Shown here: in pieces, positions 1,533 through 10,336 of the stretch
Position numbering within the stretch: the first letter of the stretch is position 1
Layout of the letters: every line of letters starts with the position of its first letter
Origin: Cirrosporium novae-zelandiae
Lineage: Eukaryota
Assembly: GCA_026023565.1 (NCBI GenBank)
Contig: JAPETS010000003.1
Span: 1,240,001-1,304,000 of the forward strand
Direction: 5' to 3'
Length of the DNA stretch: 64,000 nt
Position numbers and translations under genes: made by a program
The notes under the pieces: model-generated
Told to the model about the DNA's origin: nothing
What the model saw: only the letters and a program-made list of their open reading frames with translations
Database searches by the model: none

Positions 1533-4500
1533 ATGGCTGGTTGGTGTATAATTTCCTCCAATGTTGGCTCCATTGGCAGATTGATGACCACTTAATCATG
1601 AGGATTTGCTAACGTTTCTCAATGCTTAAGGTGCCGTCACACTTGGCTTAGACTCTACAACACAATCTCCGGAGCTTGGGGCCTCGCGATTCCAGCACGA
1701 CCCGCTCTCAGAAGACGATGGCGACCTGCATGAAGACAGAGATGAGAGGTCGTCTTCTGAGTCACAAACTCAAAATGAAATACCCCCGAATCGACTTGAT
1801 GATACAGACAACCTCAGTGGCAACCAAGAAATAGCAAATGATAGCTCACCTGAAGGCCCTCTTGCTAGAGACAAACAGAGGAAGACTGCATATTATGACT
1901 ACGCATCTGAGAAATCTTTAAGTCATGCTGAGGCCAGACTATTCTACCAGAGGCACCAGATGGAATCGAGAGCTTCTGAATCTGGATCATACAGTCCTTC
2001 CCATGCCAGAGCTCTTACGTCAAATACAGGAATAGATTCAAGGCCCTTAAGCAGGGATACAAGTTTCACATTTCCTCAAACTTCTCGTAGCTATGCCATT
2101 GAATCGGGTGGTTTTCGTCAACCAAGTGATGGGACACAGAACAAATTTATAGGTGGCCACACAATAACACAGTCTTCAAGAGAGGAGACTGTTGGCATGG
2201 ACAGTGGTCCGGTTGAAGCCGATCAATGGGCTCGAGACCATAGCACGCAGCCAGCGATCCCGCATGAAAATAAAACCTTTCTGGCTAATGAAGGACTGCA
2301 TGGAGCAGGGGCTGGGGTTGGTGTTGGAGGAGGTACTGGAGGATTTGCTAGCAGTGATGATAGTATTACTGCTGAACTTTCAGCAATCTACCAGAATATC
2401 CAGAAAGTCCTCGACCTCCGTCATAAATATATCAGACTCTCCCTACAAGGCCCGACTGACAACCCAAAGGACGAACCGGGTTGGAGGATATATCCACCTC
2501 CCGGAGAACCTGTATGGGATGATGATAAAGAACGTGTTAAGGCGAGTGCTTCAGGCAGTGAAAGCATGAACGCTAGCCAAGTTATACAACCTAAACAAGA
2601 CCCGTACTTGAAGATTCCCGACGGGCCTTCGAACTCTACGGGAGTTGATAACTCCCACGAGCAGCCATCCCTTGTCGTCAGGAAGCGCAAACTAGGGCAA
2701 GATATTGGAGAGGATTTTGACCTAAATGACCTTATGCCACTACCTGGCCCTTCTGAGATGATATTTCGCTTGGATGATGCTGGTGTGCATCAAGTTTATG
2801 AAAACTCCAAAAGTGCAGAACTTGAGACACCAATCCTAAACGTTCCAACGATACGTGAGTTCTATATGGATTTGGATGATATTCTTAATGCATCATCTGA
2901 TGGGCCTGGTAAGAGCTTTGCATTTCGACGTCTTCAGTACCTGGAAGGAAAATTTAACCTATACGTCCTATTGAACGAGTATCAGGAAATGGCCGATAGC
3001 AAAAAAGTGCCACATCGGGACTTTTACAACGTTAGGAAAGTCGATACCCATATCCATCATTCAGCTTGCATGAATCAAAAGCATCTCCTTCGCTTCATCA
3101 AAAGTAAAATGAAAAAGTTCCCAGATGAGGTTGTTATGTACCGAGATGGGAAACACTTAACCCTTCGGGAGGTGTTTGAAAGTATCAATTTGACTGCATA
3201 TGATCTTAGTATCGACACCTTGGATATGCATGCTCACAAGGACTCTTTTCATCGATTTGACAAATTCAACCTTAAATATAATCCGGTTGGAGAGTCGAGA
3301 CTACGTACAATTTTTCTGAAGACAGACAACTTCATTCATGGTCGTTATCTAGCAGAAATCACCAAAGAGGTCATTGAAGACCTTGAATCTAGTAAATACC
3401 AGATGGCAGAATGGCGCATCTCGATTTACGGTAGATCGCTCGATGAATGGGACAACCTTGCTGCATGGGTTGTTGACAACAAATTGTATTCGCCTAATGT
3501 GCGGTGGTTAATCCAGATACCGCGACTGTATGATGTCTACAAATCTTCGGGTCTGATGGCGAATTTTGAGCAGGTTATTCGGAATATCTTCGAACCATTG
3601 TTTGAGGCTACACGAGATCCTTCAAGTCACCCGAAGCTTCACGTCTTCCTCCAACGTGTAATTGGCTTTGACAGTGTAGATGATGAAAGTAAAGTCGAAC
3701 GCAGGTTGTACAGAAAGTTTCCTCCTCCACAGAAGTGGGATACCAAACAGAACCCACCATACAGTTATTGGATCTACTACATGTTCGCTAATATTGCCTC
3801 ACTGAACGCATGGAGAAAGCAAAGAGGATTCAATACTTTCGTCCTTCGTCCGCATGCTGGCGAGGCTGGAGATACTGACCATCTTGCTGCCGCTGTGCTT
3901 TGCTGCCATTCCATCAGTCATGGGTTACTGCTCCGAAAAGTACCATTTTTGCAATATATTTTCTACCTCGAACAAATTGGTATTGCTATGTCGCCTCTTA
4001 GTAATAACGCACTGTTCCTAGCTTATGAGCGAAACCCCTTCCTGAACTATTTTAAACGCGGCTTGAACGTTTCTCTTTCTACAGATGACCCCCTTCAGTT
4101 TGCTTTTACGAAGGAACCTCTGATTGAAGAATATTCCGTTGCCGCTCAGATATACAAGCTCAGCGCCGTAGATATGTGTGAATTAGCCAAGAACTCAGTA
4201 GAGCAAAGTGGGTTTGAACATGCATTGAAGCAAAGATGGCTGGGCACAAACTATCACCTACCGGATGTCAAAGGTAACAATATGGCCAAAACGAATGTTC
4301 CTAACATCAGAGAGGCCTTCCGGCACGAGACACTTCTCACTGAATTTGCCATGTAGGTATTTTTTTACATACTTCCTTTATTATTTAGGCTTCAGTCCAG
4401 GTACTAAATATCCACTCAGGATCGAGCGATACACGTCCCCCAAAACCCCTGCGAACCAACTCTCTACCCAAAATCTCCCACCCCCCCCAGCGCGCAATTT

Positions 4501-5733: not shown

Positions 5734-7269
5734 TTAAAAACCGAAACCAACTTCACCGATACGTGGTGCCCCACCCTTAAAGTCGTGACGTTCATAGTAG
5801 CGGAAAACCAAATCATACCCGTCAAGGTCATGGACAATACGGTCAATGCGACGGTATCCCTTAACATTGTCCATGCGGGCACTGCGTCGAGCAGCCTGTC
5901 GTTCGAGGACTTTGAGTTGATGGATGGTATCTAAGTCCGAGTCAAGAAGGTCCAGAGATGGCTTAGCCTCGAATAGGGTCACGGTAAAGCGGCCGGGCTT
6001 GAAGATGCTGACAACATGTTCAATCACTTCAGCAGTTTGTCGCCCGCATTGATGGCTCGGAACGCTAGTTTCGAAGGAAGCGTACGAACAGTTGGGTTCA
6101 GGGGTCACGTGTACAGTAAAATAATGGGTATCATCCTTTTTGCCTTGTGGAGCTGGCACTACACCGTTGGCAGAGAAACCGCAGGGTGTGAAAAGATAGG
6201 CATCCACACGAGCTTCGGGGTATTGGCTAACCGGATACACGTCTAAGAGGCCACAAGTCTCAGCGACGACCGTTCCTAAGGCATGCCCTTCTGTAGTAAG
6301 TTCTTCGGGGAATGATTCCTCTCCGTCGGATGCAAAGCCCCCGCTATCAGACGAATTGTTGGTGAAGACATCAAACATATCATCATCACAACTGAATGTG
6401 GGAGCTTTCGAGCCACGACGCTGAAAGAATCGACCTTCCGCGACCGCACTCGCGTGGTCAAGGTAGAACTGTCTAGCATTATCAACGTCGAGATCGGTCA
6501 TGAGAATTTCTAAAGTCTCGTCATCTTCTGGGTCTTTGTTGTCGCTCGAAGTTGCTTCTCTATTTGGCGGAACGAGAACTTTGGTTTCGGTCTCGGTCCC
6601 GCCTGGGCTTGAAGGAGGAGTCAGGACAGTATTTGGCTCCGTCAAATACAGGTACCAATGTTCACCATTCATCTTTCCAATCATATAAGCACTCCCCCCA
6701 AGGAAGAGTCTATCCAAGGACTTGACTTCATCTCTCCAGCTACGGTGGGGGCCACGTTGGCGGTCTGGGAAAAGGAAATTCTTCCTGCTGTAGAAGACAC
6801 GGTAAGGTGCAGCAGCAATCATGATACCCCCCGCAGAAGGTGCTGGAGACTGCGGGAAGCCAGCCTCAAGAGCGGCGATTTCCAAAATGCGAGGTAGGCC
6901 GCTCAGCAAAGTTGTAGTTCCGCATGTCTTCAAGATAAGCTTGTGGGGGAAGACAAACATGCTGGACTCAGACAAGAGATAGGCATCAACATCGTCAGAC
7001 TCAACGATGGAAAGAACCTTGCAATTAACCAAATCTAACATGTCCTTCCAGCTTTCGGCGGATACCGCCTTAAGGCCTGTCTTGGCAGCGGATGCAGGAA
7101 GCGCATCTGCCGATGGGCTGAACCAAACCTCTAGAAGCTTCTCAGGGCCCTCAAAGGCATTACTAGAGTCGAGATCGACTGTCGCTTCATGGTTGATCGT
7201 TAAGTGGGGAGTCCCTACAAACGATGACGGTGAGGCCGTATAATTCTGGGGAATATCAATGTTGACCAT
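5734..7269 (-). CDS. SPE2: S-adenosylmethionine decarboxylase proenzyme (AdoMetDC), 511 aa, intronless CDS
   Basis: FEGPEKLLEVWF, YLLSESS (E/S autocleavage and pyruvoyl site), LKTCGTT, TPCGFSANG, HVTPEPNCSYASFE. Confidence 0.97.
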   Translation of the reverse strand: MVNIDIPQNYTASPSSFVGTPHLTINHEATVDLDSSNAFEGPEKLLEVWFSPSADALPASAAKTGLKAVSAESWKDMLDLVNCKVLSIVESDDVDAYLLSESSMFVFPHKLILKTCGTTTLLSGLPRILEIAALEAGFPQSPAPSAGGIMIAAAPYRVFYSRKNFLFPDRQRGPHRSWRDEVKSLDRLFLGGSAYMIGKMNGEHWYLYLTEPNTVLTPPSSPGGTETETKVLVPPNREATSSDNKDPEDDETLEILMTDLDVDNARQFYLDHASAVAEGRFFQRRGSKAPTFSCDDDMFDVFTNNSSDSGGFASDGEESFPEELTTEGHALGTVVAETCGLLDVYPVSQYPEARVDAYLFTPCGFSANGVVPAPQGKKDDTHYFTVHVTPEPNCSYASFETSVPSHQCGRQTAEVIEHVVSIFKPGRFTVTLFEAKPSLDLLDSDLDTIHQLKVLERQAARRSARMDNVKGYRRIDRIVHDLDGYDLVFRYYERHDFKGGAPRIGEVGFGF

Positions 7270-7497
7270 CTCCGTATCTTAAATCAATGTTTTCACTAGA
7301 GGTAAAGGTCTTGAGAATGCTCCACAGCAGAATCAATAAGTTATTGACTTTAGCCGGTAGAGTGAAGCACTATCTGCCACCCAGACGAACAATGCGGTGT
7401 CCGCCCGAGAAGAGAAGGCCCACAGTATGTGGGAGCTTGAGTATGCTGGCTGTTGCCAGCAGCAGAGTAGTAGACTTTATGACGGCCTTGAAGGGCG

Positions 7498-7680
7498 TTA
7501 AGGAGGGCGGCCGTTGGGGGGGACGTAGAAGGCCCTGCGCGCCGGAATTTTGGCGATAGGTTGTTGACCTCGCTCTGACAGATACCGATACCCTTGGGAA
7601 GATACCGGGTCTAGCAGACGAGGATATCTGCTTTGCAGATGATGTAAATATTTATTGTAAGGTGAAAAACGTAGCTCGTG
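7498..7680 (-). promoter_or_regulatory. AUG-less upstream reading frame (uORF2) in the SPE2 leader, ending ...IPARRAFYVPPNGRPP*
   Basis: 60 sense codons with no Met between TAA at 7683-7681 and TAA at 7500-7498. In-frame near-cognate codons: CTG (7638, 7617, 7581) and ATT (7548, context GCCAAA-ATT). Confidence 0.6.
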
Positions 7681-7879
7681 TTATCTGGGCCTAAGATGAA
7701 AGAACGGTGTTAGATTCTAATTCTAGTAAAATCTATGCGACATGGGAAAGAAATATTGAGTCTGAAGACAAGGCATTTTCCATTAGGCAATGTTCGAGAG
7801 CATTCCATAAACACAAGCACAGGGGATTGACTTACTTTGTAGGCTTGGAGAGGAAACGCAGCAAATCTTTGTTGCTCAT
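7681..7879 (-). promoter_or_regulatory. Intron-split AUG uORF (uORF1, MSNKDLLRFLSKPTKPR*) in the SPE2 leader; intron 7835-7691
   Basis: ATG at 7879-7877, donor GTAAGT at 7835, branch CTAAC at about 7713-7709, acceptor CTTAG ending at 7691, stop TAA at 7683-7681. It is the only AUG I found in the predicted spliced leader. Confidence 0.7.
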
Positions 7880-8879: not shown

Positions 8880-10336
8880 CTATAGTCCTTTTATTTTGTC
8901 TTGACTTGCTAGGATGGCATGAGCTAGTCTGACCCGTTTTGACGATATAATCTTCAAAGTTACAAACCCTCCGATTTTGTCTGCAAGCTTCTTCTTGAGC
9001 TCTTCGTCGAACTCTCCACTGTAGCCATTCGACATGGGCGTGTAGTCCTTCTCCACCGACTTCAGAACCTGAAAAATAGCTTCCAGCACCATCTCTGCAT
9101 CCTTCTTTCGAGGACTATCGTCAGCTATGTTATCTTGCAAGACCTGCTCATACGATTTGAGATTTGGTATGATCAGGGCTCTTGTAACATCGGCTCCTCC
9201 AATAGCATCAAGTCCGAGGATCGCACCATAATGCGTTCCCGAAGACTTGTTTGGATCCAGAAATTGTTTGAGGCACGTTCGTGCAAGACGTGGTTTTAGG
9301 TTGTGAGATGATTCGGCATATTTCTTGCACAATAGGCCAAGTAACGACGCAGAGAAGCTACGAAGATCATAATGCCTCAGAGAGGTATTATTGTCCCCAA
9401 GTCGTCGGCCGATCAGACAAGTTAGTATTGGCGGCACGAGTGCAGCAACCTATCGGATTTATCAGCAAGAATGACAACTATGAGGATCCACATACTTACA
9501 TAGGGATTTAGATATAAACTCTCGTTCTCCAGAAGTGCCTCGGCGATATGCATCATTTGGGTCAAAACGAAAAGGTTTTTGGCATTGTGGGTGACCTTTT
9601 CAGCAACGAATTGCACAAAGTATGGCACCAATTGGTGCAAGCCCGGGTCATTGCGTAGGCTTGCGAGAGAAGAAACCCGATCCTCTTCATTTGCCTCGTT
9701 CAAGATAGCACCACAGATTTGATCAAAGTACAGTTGGAGCTCTTTGGATAATATATGTTTGACCAGAGGCTTCACACTGGCGTTATCAGTCCCTGACATA
9801 GCAGCCAGGTTTGAATTTGCCCCAGGTCCCTTAGCCAGAAGATCCTGGTTTCTCGAATCAGCAGGAGTGGGATTCTGAGGTATGGTTGGCTGGACGCCTT
9901 CAATAGCAAGCCAGTGCGCTAAACTTTGTTAGCTGTGTTACAAGGAAAGAACCGCGACTCGCATACCCGTAAATGAGATTTCTCTAGGAACTTTGGGTAA
10001 AGGAGCATTGATAATTTTCTCAAAATCCACCTCCTCATCTTCGACGTAGAACAGGGGTTGTCCAGGCCCAATTGAAGCTTCGCCAAAGCGTAAGGGGCGA
10101 GTAGACTCATATCCATATAAAGGTTCAATTTCCAGAACCCGAAGTGCGTTGGAAATATCCTGTGTTGAGAGTACTGTCCGGCGGCCATGCCGCATGAACT
10201 GCAGTGCATTTTCGAGAATCTGTGCCAGTCGATAGTCAACATCACGGGCTAGATTTTCGGCCACGTCAGGATTGAGAGAAGCGATGCCAACAGATTCGGC
10301 AACATCTTTGGCATTCTCGGGGTTCCACAGAGACAT
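8880..10336 (-). CDS. TAF6: TFIID/SAGA subunit TAF6; exons 10336-9967, 9918-9500, 9449-8880
   Basis: N-terminal histone fold (DVAESVGI...EPLYGYES), [11 protein letters not shown] across splice 1, [35 protein letters not shown]. Canonical introns at 9966-9919 and 9499-9450. Confidence 0.96.

Follow-up and report, generated by a model that had tools for sequence, protein, structure and literature searches.

Comparative evidence for a spliced upstream open reading frame and an AUG-less frame ending in Pro-Pro-stop in the S-adenosylmethionine decarboxylase leader of filamentous ascomycetes

A stretch of 64,000 nucleotides (nt) from Cirrosporium novae-zelandiae (assembly GCA_026023565.1, contig JAPETS010000003.1, positions 1,240,001 to 1,304,000), referred to here as the window, carries on its minus strand the SPE2 gene, which encodes S-adenosylmethionine decarboxylase (AdoMetDC). 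This analysis concerns the 5' leader of that gene. A preliminary description of the window had placed in the leader a spliced upstream open reading frame (uORF) with an AUG start, here uORF1, followed in the same frame by a second reading frame that lacks an AUG and terminates in Pro-Pro-stop, and it had interpreted the pair as a polyamine-sensing switch based on ribosome stalling. The coordinates given for uORF1, its intron, the second frame and the two stop codons were all reproduced on the minus strand (Table 1). Comparison with related leaders indicates that both elements, uORF1 and the Pro-Pro-stop frame, are very probably translated and functional. An architecture consisting of an AUG uORF, an AUG-less coding region and RNA hairpins is, to judge from the sequences compared, common to filamentous ascomycetes. 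The ATG at 7269 represents the true start of AdoMetDC, because homologues open with MVN..P..YTASPSS. The protein has 2915 relatives at E ≤1e-20 among 8000 candidates scored, and the nearest named relatives of the gene belong to Pezizomycotina.

Table 1. Features of the AdoMetDC gene and its leader, in window coordinates.
Feature	Position	Strand	Remarks
uORF1 exon 1, ATG + 14 codons + 2 nt (MSNKDLLRFLSKPT-K)	7836..7879	-	weak AUG context TCCTCCATGA
Leader intron, 145 nt, GTAAGT...CTAAC...TTAG	7691..7835	-	phase 2, in Lys codon
uORF1 exon 2, G CCC AGA TAA (..K-P-R-stop)	7681..7690	-	penultimate proline
Conserved nucleotides right after the uORF1 stop (CAC.AGCTAC..)	7667..7680	-	
Whole AUG-less frame (second frame of the preliminary description), 60 sense codons + TAA	7498..7680	-	
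Hairpin A, extended, inside the frame	7568..7623	-	7-bp core CCGGUAU/GUAUCGG at 7608-7585
AUU, candidate near-cognate start, GCCAAA-AUU-CC	7546..7548	-	
Core coding element, 16 codons IPARRAFYVPPNGRPP + TAA	7498..7548	-	commonest relatives: IP.RK.SFIPLSARPP
Small hairpin with its 5' end in the TAA that closes the Pro-Pro-stop frame	7482..7498	-	weak in window: -3.8 kcal/mol, z -1.4
Hairpin D, GCUGGC-loop-GCCAGC	7445..7460	-	folds in window
Hairpin E, CCCAC-loop-GUGGG	7419..7433	-	folds in window
Hairpin B, 11-bp stem, 8-nt loop	7380..7409	-	-17.3 kcal/mol, z -3.5
AdoMetDC (SPE2) coding sequence, 511 aa, without intron	5734..7269	-	Pfam PF01536, E 1e-117

The uORF1 ATG begins at 7879, 610 nt 5' of the main ATG in genomic distance, intron included. 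The spliced uORF1 reads MSNKDLLRFLSKPTKPR and terminates with TAA at 7683-7681, and the CTAAC of its intron lies 21 nt before the terminal AG. The second frame continues from this stop with 60 Met-free sense codons, ends in ...FYVPPNGRPP, and is closed by TAA at 7500-7498, 228 nt 5' of the main ATG. As had been noted from the window, the spliced leader contains no further AUG; the other ATGs between 7879 and 7269 number five, and all of them are intronic (7808, 7803, 7783, 7776 and 7743). Intron retention would therefore bring in several uORFs and cut uORF1 to 15 codons, so that a control layer dependent on splicing versus retention is possible. When the 411 nt after the uORF1 stop were subjected to 20,000 mononucleotide shuffles, 8.1% of the shuffled sequences retained at least 60 open codons, and 0.4% contained no ATG at all. 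The window alone thus provides weak evidence for the second frame, and the significance comes from the relatives. Pfam holds no family that matches the 60-residue frame at E up to 10, the plant leader peptide PF08132 included.

To collect relatives, metagenome contigs were scanned with an alignment of 22 AdoMetDC proteins. This matched 567 stretches, 343 of which encode a relative, and the best 80 of these were kept as loci (L numbers), each with up to 3 kb of upstream sequence. An ATG at the start of the match was present in 72 of the 80 loci; of these, the upstream sequence extends to 330 nt or more in 66 and to 700 nt or more in 62. Counts for the Pro-Pro-stop frame refer to the 66 leaders and counts for uORF1 to the 62 long ones, and subsets of distinct sequences are stated with each count. 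Collapsing leaders that differ by less than 10% over the first 330 nt of the coding sequence yielded 42 lineages. Loci were placed by their best BLASTP match to named AdoMetDC homologues. L001 is 100% identical to its best match, Elaphomyces, while several loci each have their best match in Penicillium or Neophaeococcomyces (85-87% identity), Zopfia (82-84%), Claussenomyces (73-77%), Alectoria (72-74%), and Neofusicoccum or Cryomyces (68-73%). We take the matched genera to represent Eurotiomycetes, Dothideomycetes, Leotiomycetes and Lecanoromycetes; no member of Sordariomycetes is among the best named matches of the 80 loci.

Of the 62 long leaders, 54 contain the exon-2 motif of uORF1, GCCCAGATAACAC directly preceded by an acceptor ag, approximately 350-480 nt 5' of the main ATG. 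By joining this motif to an upstream ATG via a GT donor in the right phase, uORF1 could be assembled in 49 of the 54. The same first exon is present in L004, L007, L023 and L071 with a GTCAGT donor that lies outside the joining rule, and L040 has a uORF1 with a variant first exon. The consensus peptide, M-[S/R]-x-x-[D/E]-L-[L/V]-R-F-L-S-K-P-A-K-P-R-stop, comprises 17 codons. In the relatives the intron ranges from 48 to 265 nt and is always inserted between bases 2 and 3 of the Lys codon. Seven loci (L001, L024, L042, L049, L051, L057 and L063) encode the same peptide contiguously, without an intron, which constitutes the comparative equivalent of a cDNA. The leader intron proposed for the window is accordingly regarded as real. 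The ratio of nonsynonymous to synonymous polymorphism (pN/pS) of uORF1 is 0.171 over 37 distinct spliced sequences, as compared with 1.21 and 3.85 in the shifted frames. Judged by these alignments, uORF1 is a conserved-peptide uORF.

The surroundings of uORF1 are also conserved. Its AUG had been described as standing in a poor context, and this weakness is a shared property of the 49 assembled uORFs, all of which have a pyrimidine at -3 (T in 46, C in 3) and A or C at +4. Among 46 distinct leaders the stop codon is UAA in 39 and UAG in 7, with no UGA, and the base that follows it (+4) is C in all 46. The conservation extends over approximately 14-20 nt 3' of the stop (UAA-CAC-C.G-CUA-CUU-GC), and is kept even where the downstream frame is out of register. 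Because the motif is retained in any register of that frame, it is not conserved for coding His; it could act as a termination context or as an RNA signal. Eight long leaders lack uORF1 (L052-L055, L060, L061, L067 and L068).

A frame ending in Pro-Pro-stop is present in 65 of the 66 leaders. It takes the form [R/W]-P-P-stop in 63, no more than 320 nt from the main ATG, and L-P-P-stop in two (L029 and L039). L066 is the sole leader of the 66 that has no such frame, and retains a uORF1 variant, MRPEDLLEFLSKPKKPR, together with hairpin D. The commonest endings are ..ASFIPLSARPP, SSFIPLSARPP, DFFIPLSARPP and DFFIPLCTRPP, and tblastn against the upstream regions recovered the C-terminal part of the 60-residue frame in most loci. 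The last 11 codons, compared over 47 distinct sequences, have a pN/pS of 0.372, versus 1.43 and 1.54 in the shifted frames. Minor alleles account on average for a fraction of 0.139 at first, 0.162 at second and 0.369 at third codon positions, and synonymous switching occurs both at Arg (CGA/CGC/AGA/CGG/CGT) and at Leu (CTC/CTT/TTG/CTG). Variation of this kind, concentrated in third positions, points to a translated peptide and not to an RNA motif. The codon-level conservation of FYVPPNGRPP-stop for which a leader alignment had been proposed is thus borne out, in that the C-terminus is under coding selection and ends at Pro-Pro-stop. With regard to the entire 60-codon frame, which had been presented as one uORF, the C-terminal part holds as coding sequence, and the middle is conserved as RNA and not as peptide. 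Pure chance as the origin of the frame is rejected on the strength of the relatives, a rejection that the window by itself would not justify. In L061, L067 and L068, the Pro-Pro-stop is located just 69 nt before the matched start.

Peptide conservation begins at the Ile encoded by the AUU triplet. An in-frame ATT occurs in all 51 distinct sequences, positioned 16 codons before the stop in 44 of them, 17 codons in 4 and 15 codons in 3, and it is never replaced by ATC or ATA. This contrasts with the Ile inside the same peptide, which is encoded by ATC in 20 cases and by ATT in 15. The nucleotides at -4 (C) and -3 (A) are likewise invariant in the 51 sequences, and the residues of the two codons that contain them vary. 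The preferred start-codon context in filamentous fungi is CA(A/C)(A/C). The invariant triplet, the fixed -4 and -3 positions and this context strongly support the AUU as a start site, and it is the codon at 7548 that had been put forward as the best candidate for entry. The CUG codons at 7638, 7617 and 7581 proposed beside it fared differently, as they are not conserved in frame and lie in or beside a hairpin that is read in different frames. A hairpin-assisted start at CUG 7638, 15 nt 5' of the stem, was considered and rejected since this CUG is not common to the relatives. More generally, no near-cognate codon at a fixed distance 5' of hairpin A is conserved in frame in the relatives' leaders.

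The region between the two stops is almost devoid of ATG, with 0, 0 and 1 in the three frames (46 distinct leaders, 2698 codons each). In L052 and L060, the 787 and 809 nt that precede the main ATG, respectively, are free of ATG, and these loci nevertheless keep a 52-codon frame ending in IPRRKSSFIPLSARPP-stop; in their relatives L053 and L055 there is only a 7-codon uORF, in another frame. The Pro-Pro-stop frame must therefore be accessible to ribosomes even where both an AUG and uORF1 are lacking. The clade without uORF1 to which these loci belong (L052, L053, L055 and L060, and also L061, L067 and L068) is nearest to Neofusicoccum or Cryomyces, with approximately 69% identity.

Conserved RNA structure accompanies the coding elements. 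The middle of the 60-codon frame is conserved at the nucleotide level (..GCAGAT.TCCTCGTCTGCT[A/G]GACCCGATAC..GGGTATCGG.ATCTGTCAG.GCGAGGA..), and it is read as ..RLLDP...GYRYLS.. in the window, and as ..SSARPDT..GYRNLS.. or ..GIGIY.. elsewhere. Because lineages read this segment in different frames, it is conserved as RNA. It forms hairpin A, the core of which is CCGAUAC/GUAUCGG in most relatives. The fold computed over 7640-7565 has an energy of -33.2 kcal/mol and a z-score (z) of -5.1; in the alignment, the 7-bp core is paired in 97.8% of the cells and the full 20-pair model in 79.2%, versus 29-37% for slid controls. Five lineages have the core deleted and the outer CCUCG/CGAGG stem kept. The outer stems (79% paired) and a competing local stem, GCAGA/UCUGC (74%), both fit the alignment, so neither is preferred.

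Additional hairpins follow downstream. The first of them has its 5' end in the TAA of the Pro-Pro-stop frame, and many relatives show it as UAACGUCC..GGACGUU. Its z is below -1 in 35 of 51 relatives, with a mean z of -1.77, and the letters of its stem differ between lineages while the stem is kept. Hairpin D is almost invariant over 47 sequences, with 97.5% of the cells paired. In hairpin E, the 4-bp helix is paired in 85.6% and the closing pair in 67.4%, and hairpin B is paired in 92.4%, with compensatory changes at five of its 11 pairs. The covariation score of the D, E and B structure taken together was reached by none of 500 shuffles. RNAalifold, applied 3' of the stop, found D and B and missed two B pairs and all of E; our own structure of D, E and B was counted instead. 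A search of Rfam returned three matches at chance level, with E above 4 and all below the gathering score.

The same leader has left a trace in protein databases. A database protein, P0001 (591 aa), is 100% identical to AdoMetDC, and its gene model begins at the uORF1 ATG and reaches the coding sequence through two other introns. The first acceptor of this model lies inside hairpin A (ctgctag followed by A, approximately at 7612), the second intron leads into the coding sequence, and about 90 residues are added as a result. Because this N-terminal extension is absent from every homologue compared, we read it as an artefact of gene prediction. Other database homologues with odd N-terminal extensions are P0014, P0029 and P0051. 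Among the neighbours of AdoMetDC in the window, a long open reading frame at 1960-4356 on the plus strand (798 aa) resembles AMP deaminase by eye, and another at 9422-10336 on the minus strand, split by an intron, resembles by eye a TAF6-like histone-fold protein.

The preliminary description had the two frames in one register, and this holds for a majority of the relatives without being universal. In 28 of the 46 distinct leaders the two stops share one frame, as compared with 8 and 10 in the other two registers; 23 of the 46 are in frame without an intervening stop, and 5 are in frame and interrupted. Counted by lineage, the in-frame relation is found in 25 of 42 (binomial p 4e-4 against one third). 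L038 and L044, which fall in one lineage cluster, differ in their frame relation. Irrespective of register, the interval between the two stops is free of stop codons in the Pro-Pro-stop frame in 33 of the 46 leaders, versus 6 and 7 in the other frames, and upstream of the ATT this frame contains 17 stops versus 47 and 50 (1763 codons, 42 lineages). The shortest stop-to-stop frames measure 21 codons (L078), 31 codons (L001) and 36 codons (L002, L005, L059 and L063). Replacement of TAG by TGG where the Pro-Pro-stop frame crosses hairpin A shows no clear pattern (TAG in frame 5 of 18, TGG 3 of 8). We conclude that translation in the Pro-Pro-stop frame probably often starts well 5' of the AUU.

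The caution that related fungal leaders might already be described was justified. Ivanov, Atkins and Michael (2010, NAR 38:353, PMC2811004) state that AdoMetDC leaders of Pezizomycotina bear uORFs, "always" with a penultimate proline. Those uORFs agree with the present ones in gene, subphylum and position in the 5' leader, and a penultimate proline is found here in both KPR-stop and RPP-stop. They differ in that the main text of that paper (PMC2811004) devotes a single sentence to them, which gives no sequence, intron, second AUG-less frame or AUU. Li and Breaker (2017, BMC Genomics 18:785, PMC5640933) describe the SDC motif, a hairpin with an 11-bp stem located 5' of the S-adenosylmethionine decarboxylase gene, with 34 examples from 26 species of Pezizomycotina, including Ajellomyces, Aspergillus and Chaetomium. 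In Neurospora crassa, disruption of the SDC stem raises reporter expression and compensatory changes restore repression; the leader has two uORFs and an intron, and its spliced form retains both uORFs (PMC5640933). As in uORF1 of the window, the 3' half of their 'uORF 2' lies beyond the 3' splice site, and because the intron lies inside it, uORF 2 would correspond to our uORF1. Their account of the motif (PMC5640933) differs from ours in treating the element as structured RNA, and reports neither peptide conservation nor a non-AUG frame. Hairpin B, which has 11 contiguous pairs and stands 5' of the gene, is on the basis of stem length and position the best candidate for the SDC motif.

The Pro-Pro-stop element shares several properties with the upstream conserved coding regions (uCCs) of ornithine decarboxylase (ODC) homologues. 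According to PMC2811004, these are AUG-less, use non-AUG starts, have two adjacent prolines near the C-terminus, and comprise approximately 100 codons in Pezizomycotina; for AZIN1, eIF5A is reported to relieve the stall at the PPW that ends the uCC (PMC9788402). Like them, the window element is a conserved coding region without AUG that precedes the main frame of a polyamine-pathway mRNA, with a near-cognate candidate start in good context (AUU, which is also the start codon in AZIN1), conservation concentrated towards the C-terminus, and adjacent prolines as its last residues (PMC2811004, PMC9788402). It differs in preceding AdoMetDC and not an ODC homologue, in its core of 16 codons, in ending in Pro-Pro-stop and not in PPW-stop or PS-stop, and in its location just 3' of an AUG conserved-peptide uORF. 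The Pro-Pro-stop element would work like a uCC without being a member of the ODC-homologue uCC groups, from which it is set apart by the downstream gene.

Other systems offer partial parallels. The peptide encoded by uORF2 of human cytomegalovirus UL4 ends in Pro-Pro-stop, arrests the ribosome at termination and blocks the downstream open reading frame; it is viral and AUG-initiated, bears no relation in sequence to the present peptides, and is not known to respond to polyamines. The plant pair of tiny and small uORFs (PF08132) and the mammalian MAGDIS uORF precede the same enzyme and resemble the present leader in the two-uORF logic, the weak first start, and a sequence-dependent inhibitory peptide with a proline near its end. 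In the ascomycete leader, by contrast, the uORFs do not overlap, the second is AUG-less, and uORF1 has 17 codons and an intron. In the literature searched, outside of which lie subscription journals, neither of the two peptides is printed, and a conserved frame with a non-AUG start is described for no fungal AdoMetDC leader. What appears to be new here is the AUG-less Pro-Pro-stop element with its invariant AUU; fungal AdoMetDC uORFs, the SDC hairpin, and splicing around uORFs are already published.

The leader elements most likely throttle the synthesis of AdoMetDC. In the mechanism that we favour, scanning ribosomes would partly bypass the weak uORF1 AUG by leaky scanning, and a fraction of them would initiate at the AUU, or in many lineages perhaps further 5' in the same frame. 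The nascent peptide would then arrest the ribosome at Pro-Pro-stop, and the arrested ribosome would block those that follow, so that AdoMetDC output drops. We hold this arrest mechanism to be reasonably probable. The polyamine level would set the strength of the arrest, acting via eIF5A or on termination itself, in analogy to the AZIN1 and ODC uCCs and to the AdoMetDC uORFs of animals and plants; such a dependence probably exists, and is rated as less likely than the arrest. uORF1 would perhaps serve as a second sensor or as a gate.

Several observations weigh against this proposal. The AUU as sole start fails to account for a frame that stays open far upstream: it is stop-free upstream of the ATT in 29 of 42 lineages, versus 6 and 7 for the other frames, and 1 stop in total was counted for it in the unconserved spacer 3' of uORF1, versus 9 and 8 (445 codons, 32 lineages). 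At the same time, an in-frame stop is found between the two stops in 13 of the 46 leaders, and the TAG of hairpin A is in register with the Pro-Pro-stop frame in 5 of the 18 lineages that possess it, roughly as often as chance would predict. The ending in the window, AFYVPPNGRPP, is a rarer variant, the common form being FIPLSARPP. Because the metagenome loci are akin to one another, they are less independent than the counts and p-values imply. The transcription start site, splicing and translation in Cirrosporium novae-zelandiae are deduced from conservation, and polyamine dependence is argued by analogy only. Finally, no binding of spermidine or spermine by the SDC hairpin RNA was found by Li and Breaker, whose account leaves the function of the uORFs open (PMC5640933).

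The distribution of frames raises the question of whether the two elements are translated in continuity. If the UAA of uORF1 were read through, a 78-residue fusion would result that ends in the Pro-Pro-stop arrest, with polyamines setting the rate. The in-frame excess (28 of 46 leaders, 23 of them uninterrupted, and 25 of 42 lineages), the scarcity of stops in the spacer after uORF1, and the C at +4 of its stop in all 46 leaders are in line with such readthrough, as a C after a stop codon is a weak termination context. Nonetheless, the frames disagree in 17 of 42 lineages, L038 and L044 have different registers despite being less than 10% apart in the coding sequence, and five in-frame leaders have an intervening stop. 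The clade of L052-L055 and L060 keeps the frame without having uORF1. Moreover, the uORF1 stop is UAA in 39 of 46 and never UGA, the post-stop motif is also kept in out-of-frame lineages, and peptide-level conservation is lacking directly after the stop. Readthrough of the uORF1 UAA, initially suggested as one way into the second frame, thus does not hold as a general route, and we consider it quite unlikely. A broader form of coupling would have slow termination after Lys-Pro-Arg (UAA/UAG-C-A-C) decide on AUG-less entry into the Pro-Pro-stop frame. In lineages with matching frames the ribosome would read through the stop, and in the others it would reinitiate after termination or change frame, with the approximately 14-20 conserved nt 3' of that stop as the signal that couples the two elements. 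Such a relay would account for the lack of stops in the frame, from the uORF1 stop on, in most lineages, something that an AUU start by itself leaves unexplained. It is unlikely as well, if less so than plain readthrough.

It is also conceivable that uORF1 is the real polyamine sensor, with an arrest at Lys-Pro-Arg-stop in the style of MAGDIS and the plant uORFs, and that the Pro-Pro-stop frame and the hairpins are constitutive barriers. uORF1 is the more strongly constrained element by pN/pS, it begins with an AUG, its next-to-last residue is proline, its stop context is conserved, and it is probably the element meant by the sentence in PMC2811004. Its loss from one clade that kept the Pro-Pro-stop frame speaks against this role, as does the at least equal spread of Pro-Pro-stop (65 of 66 versus 54 of 62 leaders). 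The roles of the two elements are, however, not mutually exclusive. On balance we view uORF1 as the sensor as a rather unlikely arrangement, yet one with more in its favour than coupled entry. The abundance of conserved structure in the leader, and a mid-frame segment conserved as RNA and read in different frames, might suggest that the block before 7498 is an untranslated RNA or protein-binding element, and its open frame a by-product. The last 11 codons contradict this, since they vary mainly at third positions and have a low pN/pS in frame alone, with the stop position and the Pro-Pro fixed; an untranslated element is very improbable. Still more remote is an alternative 3' splice site, the CUGCUAG in hairpin A, that would join uORF1 exon 1 to the frame and create an ordinary AUG uORF. 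It is exactly the acceptor used in gene model P0001, and the junction would fall in the Pro-Pro-stop frame where lineages read the hairpin as ..ARPDT... In the window, however, the junction gives the +1 frame (KPGIFPRV..), eight lineages have TGG for TAG and hence no AG, and a single 3' splice site is reported for N. crassa in the account of Li and Breaker (PMC5640933).

The Pro-Pro-stop element brings together, in one testable architecture, two published observations that had stood apart: a brief reference to uORFs in fungal AdoMetDC leaders, and a hairpin whose repressive effect lacked an explanation. It is present in at least four classes of filamentous ascomycetes. The leader also explains a recurrent annotation error, in which predicted gene models run from the uORF1 ATG into the coding sequence. 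With this element, the non-AUG uCC principle of the ODC homologues would also apply to AdoMetDC, the second rate-limiting enzyme of the pathway. AdoMetDC commits S-adenosylmethionine to the synthesis of spermidine, and spermidine is the source of the hypusine of eIF5A. If true, an arrest at Pro-Pro-stop on the AdoMetDC mRNA would establish a direct feedback loop between the product of the pathway and the factor that resolves proline stalls.

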